DNA from: Escherichia phage YZ1
Reading direction: 5' to 3' (one strand)
Sequence record: NC_047927.1
Length of the DNA: 38,823 bases
Below are positions 1 through 38,823 of the stretch, one piece after another. Position 1 is the stretch's first letter. Each line of letters opens with the position of its first letter. The notes below the pieces were generated by a model, which was given only the letters and a program-made list of their open reading frames with translations, did not search any database and was not told where the DNA came from. Both the position numbers and the translations under genes were made by a program.

Positions 1-217
1 TCTCACAGTTCAAGAACCTCAAGTCTCCCCATAGGCCCTCTTTAAGTCCAGACCAAAGGCCCTACCCCAGTCTATCATAAGGCTGGACCGATGGTCAAGA
101 CGTTAGGTCAACGATAGGTCTAGGCTATGGCTGGAGGTCAGGACGATAGGTAGGGACTATGGGTCTGCCTCTGAGTCCCTATCTGTATAGTGATATAGTA
201 TAACCATAGGTCCTACA

Positions 218-302
218 ACCTACAGTCTAACTAACCTACAGTCTAACTAACCTACAGTATCAACCATAAGACACTCACACCCTACAGTCAAAGACCTACA
301 GT
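218..302. repeat. Left-end array of five CCTACAGT octamers (first two copies inside a tandem 16-bp unit ACCTACAGTCTAACTA)
   Basis: Direct reading: CCTACAGT at 219, 235, 251, 281 and 295. Analogous in position to the short repeat arrays next to the T7 terminal repeat. Confidence 0.8.
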
Positions 303-35018: not shown

Positions 35019-35213
35019 ATGATTGAGTTAGACTTTAAGAACGAAGTCCTTAAGGCCTCCCCTATCGTTGGAACCGCTGCGGCTGATGGTGCCAGTCGGT
35101 TCTTCTTTGGACTCACACTGAACGAATGGTTCTACGTTGCAGCTATTGCGTACACCGTTGTCCAGATTGGTGTTCTGGTATACAAAACGATTAAAGGGGG
35201 AGGAAAGTCATGA
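35019..35213 (+). CDS. Class II holin (T7 gene 17.5 homolog, 64 aa)
   Basis: KASPIVGTAAADGASRFFFGLTLNEWFYVAAIAYTVVQIG is near-identical to T7 gp17.5. Confidence 0.9.
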   Translation: MIELDFKNEVLKASPIVGTAAADGASRFFFGLTLNEWFYVAAIAYTVVQIGVLVYKTIKGGGKS

Positions 35214-35473
35214 CACAAATGGACTTAGAGAAGTTCTTACTGATGCTGGATACGGAGCGTGCTCGCCTCATGTTGCAAGACTTGAGGGATGACACTAAGC
35301 GCTCGCCACAGCTCTACAACGCCATTGAGAAGCTACTTGCTCGTCACAACTTTGTGTTAAGCAAGGTGTCTGTGGACGAGAAGACACTGGCTGATATGGA
35401 GGCCCTGAACGCAGAGTACGATAAGGTGCTTTCAGCGACTGAGGATAATGACACCGGGTATGGTGTTCAATAA
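35210..35473 (+). CDS. Small terminase subunit / DNA maturase A (T7 gene 18 homolog, 87 aa)
   Basis: LLMLDT, RSPQLYNAIEKLLARH conserved with T7 gp18; lies before the large terminase as in T7. Confidence 0.85.
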   Translation: MTQMDLEKFLLMLDTERARLMLQDLRDDTKRSPQLYNAIEKLLARHNFVLSKVSVDEKTLADMEALNAEYDKVLSATEDNDTGYGVQ

Positions 35474-35937: not shown

Positions 35938-36370
35938 GAGAGCGGCTCCGTGGTTACTTGCAGCAGTGATGTTTGCTGGTGGCTACCACACCGCTAACAA
36001 TAAGTGGGAGGCTAAGGTAAATGCAGAATACACCTCGAATCTTAAGGCATCGGAGGATACAAGACTTGCTGTCCAAGCTGAAGTCAACAAAGTGTCCAAA
36101 CGGTTCCAGGACGAAATGTCCTCGTTGGAAGGCAGCACTGATAGGATTATTGCTGACCTTAAGTCTGACAATAAGCGGCTGCTCATCCGAGTCAAACCAA
36201 CGAGTGGAACCACGCAAAGTGACGGTCGATGCGTCATTGATGGTAGAGCCGAACTTGACGAACGAGATGCTAAACGTCTTATCGCCATCGGAGTGAAAGG
36301 AGACAAGTGGATTAAGGCCCTTCAAGACACTGTGAGAGCCTTACAGCAAGAGAAGGAGGTGAAACCTTGA
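35918..36370 (+). CDS. Rz-like i-spanin (T7 gene 18.5 homolog, 150 aa; start may be the second ATG at 35930)
   Basis: N-terminal TM segment, then [18 protein letters not shown] ... [16 protein letters not shown] ... [17 protein letters not shown], colinear with T7 gp18.5. Confidence 0.85.
36021..36296 (+). CDS. Rz1-like o-spanin lipoprotein embedded in the +1 frame of Rz (T7 gene 18.7 homolog, 91 aa)
   Basis: [21 protein letters not shown] with lipobox cysteine, then [18 protein letters not shown], matching T7 gp18.7 as remembered; wholly inside the Rz ORF. Confidence 0.7.
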   Translation: MQNTPRILRHRRIQDLLSKLKSTKCPNGSRTKCPRWKAALIGLLLTLSLTISGCSSESNQRVEPRKVTVDASLMVEPNLTNEMLNVLSPSE

Positions 36371-38130
36371 GTAAAGACTTAGTGGCGCGTCAGGCGCTAA
36401 TGACAGCACGTATGAAGGAAGACTTCGTGTTCTTCCTGTTCGTCCTGTGGAAAGCTCTGTCACTCCCGGTCCCGACTCGCTGTCAGATTGACATGGCGAA
36501 GAAACTATCGGCTGGTGACAACAGGCGTTTCATCCTACAGGCGTTCCGTGGTATCGGGAAGTCCTTCATTACGTGTGCATTCGTGGTCTGGAAACTATGG
36601 AACAACCCAGACCTGAAGTTCATGATTGTGTCGGCCTCAAAGGAACGAGCCGATGCGAACTCCATCTTCATCAAGCGAATCATCGACCTCATGCCTCAGC
36701 TTCAGGAACTCAAACCTAAGCAGGGACAGCGAGATGCGGTTATCAGCTTCGACGTTGGGCCAGCCAAACCAGACCACTCACCCTCGGTTAAGTCCGTTGG
36801 TATCACTGGTCAGTTGACTGGTAGTCGTGCTGACATCCTGATTGCCGATGACGTGGAGGTTCCGAACAACTCAGCGACTCAGTCTGCACGAGACCGTCTG
36901 TCAGAGCTTGTGAAAGAGTTCGACGCTATCCTGAAGCCGGGAGGTACAATCATCTATCTGGGTACTCCTCAGAACGAGATGACCTTGTATCGTGAGCTGG
37001 AAGGCCGTGGATACACCACTACCATCTGGCCTGCTCGTTATCCACGCGACAGGAAGGACTGGCAGTCTTACGGCGACCGTCTGGCACCGATGCTTCAGGC
37101 AGAGCTTGAAGATGACCCTGAGTCCTTCTACTGGCGTCCGACCGATGAAGTACGATTCGATGATACGGACCTGAAGGAACGTGAGCTGTCCTATGGTAAA
37201 GCTGGCTTCTCTCTACAGTTCATGCTTAACCCTAACCTGAGTGATGCTGAGAAGTACCCTCTGAAGCTCCGTGACCTTATCGTAGCCGACTTGGACCCAG
37301 CGTCTAGCCCAATGGTATACCAATGGCTTCCTAACCCTCAGAACAAGCGTGAGGACGTTCCTAACGTTGGACTCATGGGTGACTCATACCACACGTATCA
37401 GACTGTAGGTTCTGCCTTCAGTTCGTACACCCAGAAGATTCTAGTCATTGACCCTAGTGGTCGTGGTAAGGATGAAACTGGTTATGCGGTACTGTACCAG
37501 CTCAACGGCTACATCTTCGCTATGGAAGTTGGCGGTATGCGAGGTGGCTATGAAGACTCTACGCTGGAAGCCTTGGCTAAGATTGGTCGTAAGTGGAAGG
37601 TCAACGAATACGTCATTGAGGGTAACTTCGGTGATGGTATGTACCTTGAGCTATTCAAGCCTGTAGCTTCCCGTATTCATCCTGCTGCTGTAACTGAAGT
37701 GAAGAGTAAGGGTCAGAAGGAACTCCGCATCTGTGACGTTCTGGAGCCTATCATGGGGTCTCACCGACTTATCGTTAACGCTGCTGCTATCGTCCAAGAT
37801 TACCAGTCTGCCTCTGATAAGGATGGTGTTCGTAATCCTATCTACTCTCTCTTCTACCAGATGACACGCATCTCTCGTGAACGTGGAGCATTGGCACACG
37901 ATGACCGACTTGATGCGCTGGCTATCGGTGTACAGTTCTTCGTTGAGTCTATGGCGAAGGATGCCAACAAAGGCGAACGTGAAGTCACTGAGGAGTGGCT
38001 GGAGGAACAGATGGAGAACCCACGGAAAGGCTTCGAGTCCATCCGCACTGAGTTCTGGGACAATGGGGTCCGGGTAACTCACGATACGGACGACGAGCTG
38101 GGGCTAGGGTCCTACGTTACGTTCCACTAG
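36367..38130 (+). CDS. Large terminase subunit / DNA maturase B (T7 gene 19 homolog, 587 aa; apparent TTG start)
   Basis: Colinear near-identity with T7 gp19 ([41 protein letters not shown] Walker [76 protein letters not shown]). TTG at 36367 has AAGGAGG 7 nt upstream; the first ATG is 11 codons in. Confidence 0.95.
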
Positions 38131-38224: not shown

Positions 38225-38247
38225 ACTTAACTATCACTATAGGAAGA
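38225..38247 (+). promoter_or_regulatory. Phage RNAP promoter near the right end (T7 phiOR position)
   Basis: ACTTAACTATCACTATAGGAAGAC, predicted +1 G at 38242. Confidence 0.7.
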
Positions 38248-38585: not shown

Positions 38586-38618
38586 CGCAATCATGGTAAC
38601 GATTCATGAGCGGAAGAC

Positions 38619-38661
38619 CTAAGGTCAGTACGTGGATAAAGACTCACTCTACTGACCTTAG
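38619..38661 (+). repeat. Perfect 12-bp inverted repeat (CTAAGGTCAGTA / TACTGACCTTAG) with a 19-nt loop near the right end
   Basis: Direct reading; the arms are exact reverse complements. Confidence 0.7.
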
Positions 38662-38748
38662 CTACTGTAGTCAAGGACTTTAGGTAACACCTTAATAGAA
38701 GCTCACTTAGGGTCATCCTACTTATTGGTCTATCCTAGTGTCGCCTGA

Positions 38749-38786
38749 CCTACGGTCCTTGACCTACAGTAGCTGCCACCTACGGT
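38749..38786. repeat. Right-end array of three CCTAC(A/G)GT octamers
   Basis: CCTACGGT at 38749, CCTACAGT at 38763, CCTACGGT at 38779; same octamer family as the left-end array at 218-302. Confidence 0.75.
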
Positions 38787-38823
38787 CACTCGATGAGTTT
38801 TGGACCAAAAGTTTGAGACCACA

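Follow-up and report, generated by a model that had tools for sequence, protein, structure and literature searches.

The right arm of the window (the whole stretch of 38,823 nucleotides analysed here) encodes both terminase subunits, gp18 and gp19, an Rz-like protein and, as the last open reading frame ahead of a non-coding right end, a homologue of gene 19.5 (Table 1). The gp18 homologue in K1F is annotated as the terminase small subunit; the gene 19.5 homologue had no match in Pfam. No credible reading frame crosses 38586–38823 in the list of open reading frames. Over the right 824 bp the window is 95–99% identical to 78 records, the best matches among which are classified as Kayfunavirus, and over the left 700 bp its identity to Kayfunavirus records reaches 96%. 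Judged by these matches, the window is evidently the unit-length genome of a Kayfunavirus, a K1F-like phage of the T7 group (Studiervirinae). Among the matched public records, many were deposited circularly permuted, and the host given for some of those from Kayfunavirus (Acinetobacter, Enterococcus) is improbable. In several GenBank records the terminal repeat and the left-hand repeat array are covered by annotated ORFs (hypothetical proteins, 'alpha,alpha-trehalase').

Nine matches to the sequence AACTATCACTATAGGRAGA, with zero to three mismatches, were found between 2090 and 38247, all on the + strand, as compared with 0.02 expected; this sequence is the phage RNA polymerase promoter. The rightmost copy lies in the phiOR position: the CR44b record has a promoter at the corresponding site, and the T7 and T3 records have phiOR itself there. 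It is directed through the right-hand octamer array into the terminal repeat. Searches for sigma-70 promoters and terminators near the array gave no signal of note, and no Rfam family matched anywhere in the window.

Table 1. Features of the right arm and of the two ends of the window, with the internal octamers.
Feature	Position	Strand	Evidence or remark
Small terminase subunit gp18	35210..35473	+	Pfam PF11123 DNA_Packaging_2, E = 3e-12
Rz-like protein gene	right arm		
Large terminase subunit gp19	36367..38130	+	Pfam PF22530 Terminase-T7_RNaseH-like, E = 5e-38
Phage RNA polymerase promoter AACTATCACTATAGGAAGA, phiOR position	38229..38247	+	
Gene 19.5 homologue, 52 aa	38427..38585	+	ORF list; annotated 19.5 in CR44b
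Inverted repeat (hairpin)	38619..38661	+	stems GACCTAAGGTCAGT / ACTGACCTTAGC
Octamer copy 1, CCTACGGT (extended GACCTACGGTC)	38749..38756	+	exact match
Octamer copy 2, CCTACAGT	38763..38770	+	exact match
Octamer copy 3, CCTACGGT, variable copy	38779..38786	+	exact match
Conserved terminal block CGATGAGTTTTGGACCAAAAGTTTGAGACCACA	38789..38823	+	ends at right-end cut site, pacC-like context
Direct terminal repeat, single copy	1..181 (end between 179 and 184)	+	homology to K1F, CR44b, SH3
Pause-like motif CTATCTGTA	178..187	+	right boundary of terminal repeat
Left array, five CCTACAGT	219, 235, 251, 281, 295 (219..302)	+	exact match
Internal CCTACRGT, within genes	5094, 7022, 7942, 16932, 19090, 22495, 25723, 28280, 34833, 37402	both	

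The window starts with TCTCACAGTT and ends with GTTTGAGACCACA, finishing in GAGACCACA. The preliminary description had stated that the right end of the window does not repeat its left-end sequence and had placed the right terminal repeat, if present, just beyond the window. Both ends were read and showed no terminal duplication, in agreement with the first statement; homology supports the second, as the repeat starts at the corresponding point in K1F, CR44b and SH3. In OQ703102, a circularly permuted record that is 98.8% identical, the homologue of position 38823 is followed directly by that of position 1, and the exact junction of GAGACCACA with TCTCACAGTT is present in 16 IMG/VR contigs. The linear records of K1F, CR44b, KM02 and SH3 have a second copy of the left end directly after GAGACCACA. 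Because the second repeat starts after GAGACCACA in these relatives, the window is a single genome unit in which the repeat is present once.

The terminal repeat is annotated as 183 bp in CR44b and at 39261–39444 in SH3, and the ends of SH3 were mapped by run-off sequencing of virion DNA, giving 183 bp; the K1F repeat is quoted as 179 bp in the same paper (Hamdi et al., 2016; PMC4925675). The annotated boundaries of the repeat vary by a few bases from record to record, and the right repeat spans 179–184 bp in K1F, CR44b and SH3. It had been proposed that positions 1 to about 160–230 would be repeated, and the extent of about 1–180 implied by the relatives falls inside that range. When the repeat was sought by its start, TCTCA(C/T)AGT, with a length of ∼160–240 bp, the window held one copy, and a duplication was seen in the relatives with mapped ends. 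By homology, then, the window appears to start at the physical left end, and the right repeat of the virion would be a copy of about positions 1–180, the expected virion ends being TCTCACAG at the left and ∼180 bp beyond GAGACCACA at the right. The practical result is that the window can be handled as a complete genome unit, to which virion DNA would add this second copy at its right end.

Read along a concatemer, the elements follow one another in the order phiOR-type promoter, gene 19.5, hairpin, right array of three octamers, conserved 37-bp block and cut site, and beyond the cut, terminal repeat (∼180 bp), class II pause-like motif and left array of five octamers; all of them lie on one strand. 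As far as order and sequence can tell, this arrangement is the standard concatemer-junction architecture of the T7 group, a point absent from the preliminary description, and 38586–38823 together with 1–302 is a packaging junction, not junk or coding DNA. The hairpin folds as DNA with -11.3 kcal/mol (z = -3.6) and is separated from the right array by a spacer of about 84–87 bp; it is possibly the counterpart of the hairpin-end element described in the processing of T7 concatemers. The terminal block, which ends in GGACCAAAAGTTTGAGACCACA, is similar to the sequence around the right end in T7, T3 and gh-1, ACCAnAAAAATCTGA(G/A)TG, which suggests that the family shares a cut-site context.

At the far border of the repeat, T7 and T3 have CCCTATCTGTT where the window has CTATCTGTA, and gh-1 has a doubled copy. 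Class II pause sites of T7 RNA polymerase contain a conserved heptamer (bioRxiv 10.64898/2026.02.12.705533). Here TATCTGTA, at 180–187, has six of the seven conserved bases of the class II signal H-ATCTGTT, its final base being A rather than T, and this A replaces the last T in all Kayfunavirus junctions.

An exact pattern search placed CCTACRGT three times on the + strand between 37 and 75 bp before the window end, precisely where the preliminary description had reported three octamers within 75 bp of the end. The match that it claimed with a left-end octamer also held, five + strand copies being present past the terminal repeat. All repeats of the two arrays share this orientation, and the extended unit reads (G/C)ACCTACRGT(C/A). 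In the whole window CCTACRGT occurs 18 times, as compared with 2.68 +/- 1.68 expected, and none of 100 dinucleotide-preserving shuffles reached 18. Three copies within 40 bp arose in none of 3000 first-order Markov simulations, and two copies in 22 of the 3000.

The ten copies internal to the genome, all within genes, exceed the 2.9 expected under a third-order Markov model. K1F has nine internal octamers (2.8 expected), largely at sites homologous to those of the window, and the looser pattern CCTAMRGT occurs 29 times in the window as compared with 5.1 expected. A C follows six of the ten internal octamers, as in the arrays. T7 primase recognizes GTC-containing sites, and the octamers were considered as primase sites; this was rejected as an overall explanation, as a C follows just five of the eight array copies and GTC is absent from most of the T7 heptamers. 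Read on the opposite strand, the octamer (ACTGTAGG) is one base off the promoter core ACTATAGG, and the T7 heptamer (ACTTTAGG) departs from that core at the same base.

Conservation was assessed in an alignment of 26 distinct Kayfunavirus junctions, of which 16 loci were recovered with a junction-spanning pattern and the others by similarity to 38586–38823. The pattern makes the last 9 bp of those 16 loci invariant by construction, and since the relatives are close (72–100% identity in segments) and many of them were selected with the help of the junction, the conservation is partly built in. Copy 1, in its extended form, was invariant in all 26 junctions and copy 2 was kept in 25, SH3 having ACATACAGT. 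The two copies lie at fixed positions, -76 and -62 from the cut site, and they hold these positions in junctions where the ∼60 bp upstream of copy 1 are unrelated sequence (L008, L143–L145). Mean pairwise identity was 0.956 in the block of copies 1 and 2, 0.827 in the upstream spacer and 0.719 in the segment of copy 3. This third copy reads CCTACGGT, CCTACAGT or CCTACAGC in the relatives, with TCCTAAGGAGGGA in its place in six; its CCTAAGG variant showed, by eye, no clean pattern with respect to the motifs of the left flank. In the 26 junctions the terminal block was nearly invariant and the hairpin stems were fully so; two unrelated loop alleles circulate between these stems. When viral contigs were scanned for CCTACRGT-N5-9-CCTACRGT, the matches listed were mostly unrelated contigs (chance pairs and other tandem repeats), plus Kayfunavirus contigs. 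The alignment shows that, of the three right-hand copies, two are constrained, and that these stand at a constant distance from the right-end cut.

The left array of the relatives has from two to seven or more copies, all on the + strand, in units of 15–16 bp that are often in perfect tandem. It starts at a variable distance past the terminal repeat and is mixed with a second motif, CCATAGGTC/CCATAAGTC, which in L006 occurs five times in tandem. Taken over 190–302 of the window and the left flanks of L006, L009, L014 and L149, the array is VNTR-like in its copy number, with up to seven CCTACAGT in perfect units. In the window, equal gaps of 37 bp separate the right array from the repeat and the repeat from the left array; we set aside any meaning of this equality, as the left distance varies widely in relatives.

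To compare the flanks of the repeat more widely, we took the commonest 7-mer common to the 200 bp before and the 200 bp after it in five genomes. In the window this is CCTACAG, with one copy before and five after the repeat (CCTACGG adds two before and none after), and in K1F it is again CCTACAG (two and four). In T7 it is CCTAAAG (two and eight), in T3 CCTAAAG (four and two) together with CCTGTAG (two and two), and in gh-1 CCATAGG (two and four). In none of the five genomes did any of 2000 shuffles reach the observed copy number of the shared core. As the same core is found on both flanks and differs by lineage, the two arrays evolve in concert and the core drifts between lineages. From these comparisons the three octamers are almost certainly to be regarded as the Kayfunavirus form, on the right-hand side, of the short arrays that flank the repeat in the T7 group.

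Arrays of this kind could be by-products of slippage or unequal recombination beside the terminal repeat, without any sequence-specific function, their likeness to one another being kept by gene conversion in the concatemer; the premise is that the surroundings of a terminal repeat are a region of intense recombination and end processing. The left array has the look of such a by-product, with its two to seven or more copies in perfect units (for example TCCTACAACCTACAG five times in L009), and so does the third copy of the right array, which is variable or replaced. Copies 1 and 2 do not, because they and their distance from the cut site stay unchanged where neighbouring DNA is replaced, and unequal spacers keep the right array from being a perfect tandem. 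Moreover, arrays in one orientation have persisted on both flanks in four genera despite the changed core. We consider it unlikely that the arrays are by-products only.

What a functional array might do is suggested by work on T7 and T3. Packaging of T7 DNA requires a Pac site at the concatemer junction, consisting of PacB, for recognition, and PacC, for cleavage by gp19 (PMC9860248). The specificity of T3 and T7 packaging resides in gp19 and in DNA within 5% of the genome ends; RNA polymerase, together with lysozyme, pauses at the junction and engages gp18 and gp19, so that packaging starts (PMC3276506). We propose that the octamers are putative binding sites for a phage packaging protein. 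The likeliest reader would be the terminase (gp19 with gp18), recognizing the junction: copies 1 and 2 would help to set it at a fixed distance from the right-end cut, as part of a pacB-like recognition element, and the left array would be a looser partner across the repeat, tolerant of changes in copy number. Lineage-specific cores on both flanks would fit such a shared trans-acting reader. We rate at about even the chances of the joint claim that the octamers are the right array of a T7-group concatemer junction and binding sites for the packaging protein (terminase). The mechanism taken alone, in which octamers bound by terminase would position the right-end cut, seems to us possible but somewhat short of even.

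Several observations count against this packaging role. The third copy of the right array can be dispensed with or replaced, and the left array ranges from two to seven or more copies at a varying distance, so that tight constraint looks to be confined to part of the system. Gene conversion between the arrays could give shared lineage-specific cores without any protein reader. A pure packaging signal also does not predict the excess of internal octamers (10 as compared with 2.9); this modest excess is predicted neither by a role in packaging nor by any of the rival explanations. Our literature search found no paper giving a function to the octamers or to the T7 heptamers.

The arrays might instead serve the duplication of the terminal repeat, by stalling or marking replication or nicking at the repeat borders so that, together with the hairpin, the one repeat of a junction would be copied and two full ends generated. 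In favour of this, all genomes examined have arrays to the left and to the right of the repeat, and 87 bp ahead of the right array there is a conserved hairpin. A hairpin-end intermediate in the processing of T7 concatemers was described by Chung, Nardone and Hinkle (1990), as cited in PMC4925675, and it too would favour such a function. The distance from the repeat to the left array, however, is not conserved. In addition, the T7 hairpin element was reportedly found to be dispensable by Kim and Chung in 1996. On balance we think it distinctly unlikely that duplication of the repeat is what the arrays serve.

A further possibility is a role during transcription, in which the repeats, whether in the DNA or in its transcript, influence how the phage RNA polymerase elongates or pauses, or recruit a factor to the transcribing enzyme; polymerase from the phiOR-type promoter would cross the right array before it reached the pause site on the opposite side of the repeat. 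The array does lie downstream of a + strand phage promoter with no terminator between, a class II pause-like motif stands at the repeat border in all lineages, and pausing at the junction has been linked to the start of packaging (PMC3276506). The single mismatch between the reverse complement of the octamer and the promoter core ACTATAGG can be counted on the same side. Nevertheless, the octamer does not resemble the class II signal ATCTGTT, and the array matched no Rfam family and has no evident RNA structure. The left array, moreover, lies past the pause site, where less transcription arrives. A role in transcription is improbable in our view.

In a more speculative form of the packaging proposal, which we offer tentatively and think rather less probable than not, the flanking cores would be a lineage-specific packaging address code, and each terminase would read its own core, namely CCTACRG in Kayfunavirus, CCTAAAG in T7 and T3, and CCATAGG in gh-1. 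Right-hand copies 1 and 2 would set the register of the cut, and changes in the core would co-evolve with gp19. Such a code, if true, would explain packaging specificity between related phages and would give a function to the T7 repeats, which have been visible since 1983.

The value of the present observations is modest. They consist of the lineage-specific cores on the flanks and of a constraint on copies 1 and 2 that is stronger than that on copy 3 or on the left array, and these two patterns make the hypothesis of packaging specificity directly testable. The presence in each lineage of a core of its own, to both sides of the repeat, and the constant distance of two right-hand copies from the cut provide an experimental handle on a long-known feature of T7-type genomes. 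They should also be useful in designing transducing particles, or phagemids with specific packaging, for K1F-like phages.

Among the closest counterparts are the arrays of K1F, CR44b and SH3. These phages share with the window the octamers, their distance from the cut site and the cut site itself, as well as the repeat of 179–184 bp, the hairpin and the pause-like motif. Differences from these phages are allelic only, and concern the R base of copy 3, the number of copies in the left array and the allele of the hairpin loop.

The likeness to T7 is one of design. T7 has a 160-bp repeat with CCTAAAG arrays on both sides and ATCTGTT directly past the repeat, and T3 and gh-1 follow the same design. 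In T7 as here, non-coding arrays with a core of 7–8 bp in one orientation stand just outside both borders of a repeat of 160–230 bp, phiOR and gene 19.5 preceding the right array and a pause-like ATCTGT motif preceding the left. In contrast to the CCTAAAG core of T7, the core here is CCTACRG(T), with one or two positions changed, and its spacing is 14–16 bp rather than ∼13 bp. T7 and T3 have three copies of their core inside the repeat, whereas the Kayfunavirus repeat has no exact copies, and the right array of Kayfunavirus is the shorter, with two or three copies. Dunn and Studier are said to have named the flanking arrays of T7 SRL and SRR in 1983; the T7 record V01146 has no repeat feature annotated at the arrays.

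With the Pac site of T3 and T7 the octamers share their place on the right-end side of the junction, beside the cut site and downstream of a phage promoter, in a genome with T7-type gp18 and gp19. The pacB element of T3 and T7 was defined by deletion and packaging assays; the likeness seen here is one of position and conservation only. This kind of element has been visible since the T7 sequence was published, and the Kayfunavirus arrays are already present in K1F (published in 2005). The right array of the window is thus ordinary for its phage group, though it is real and conserved.
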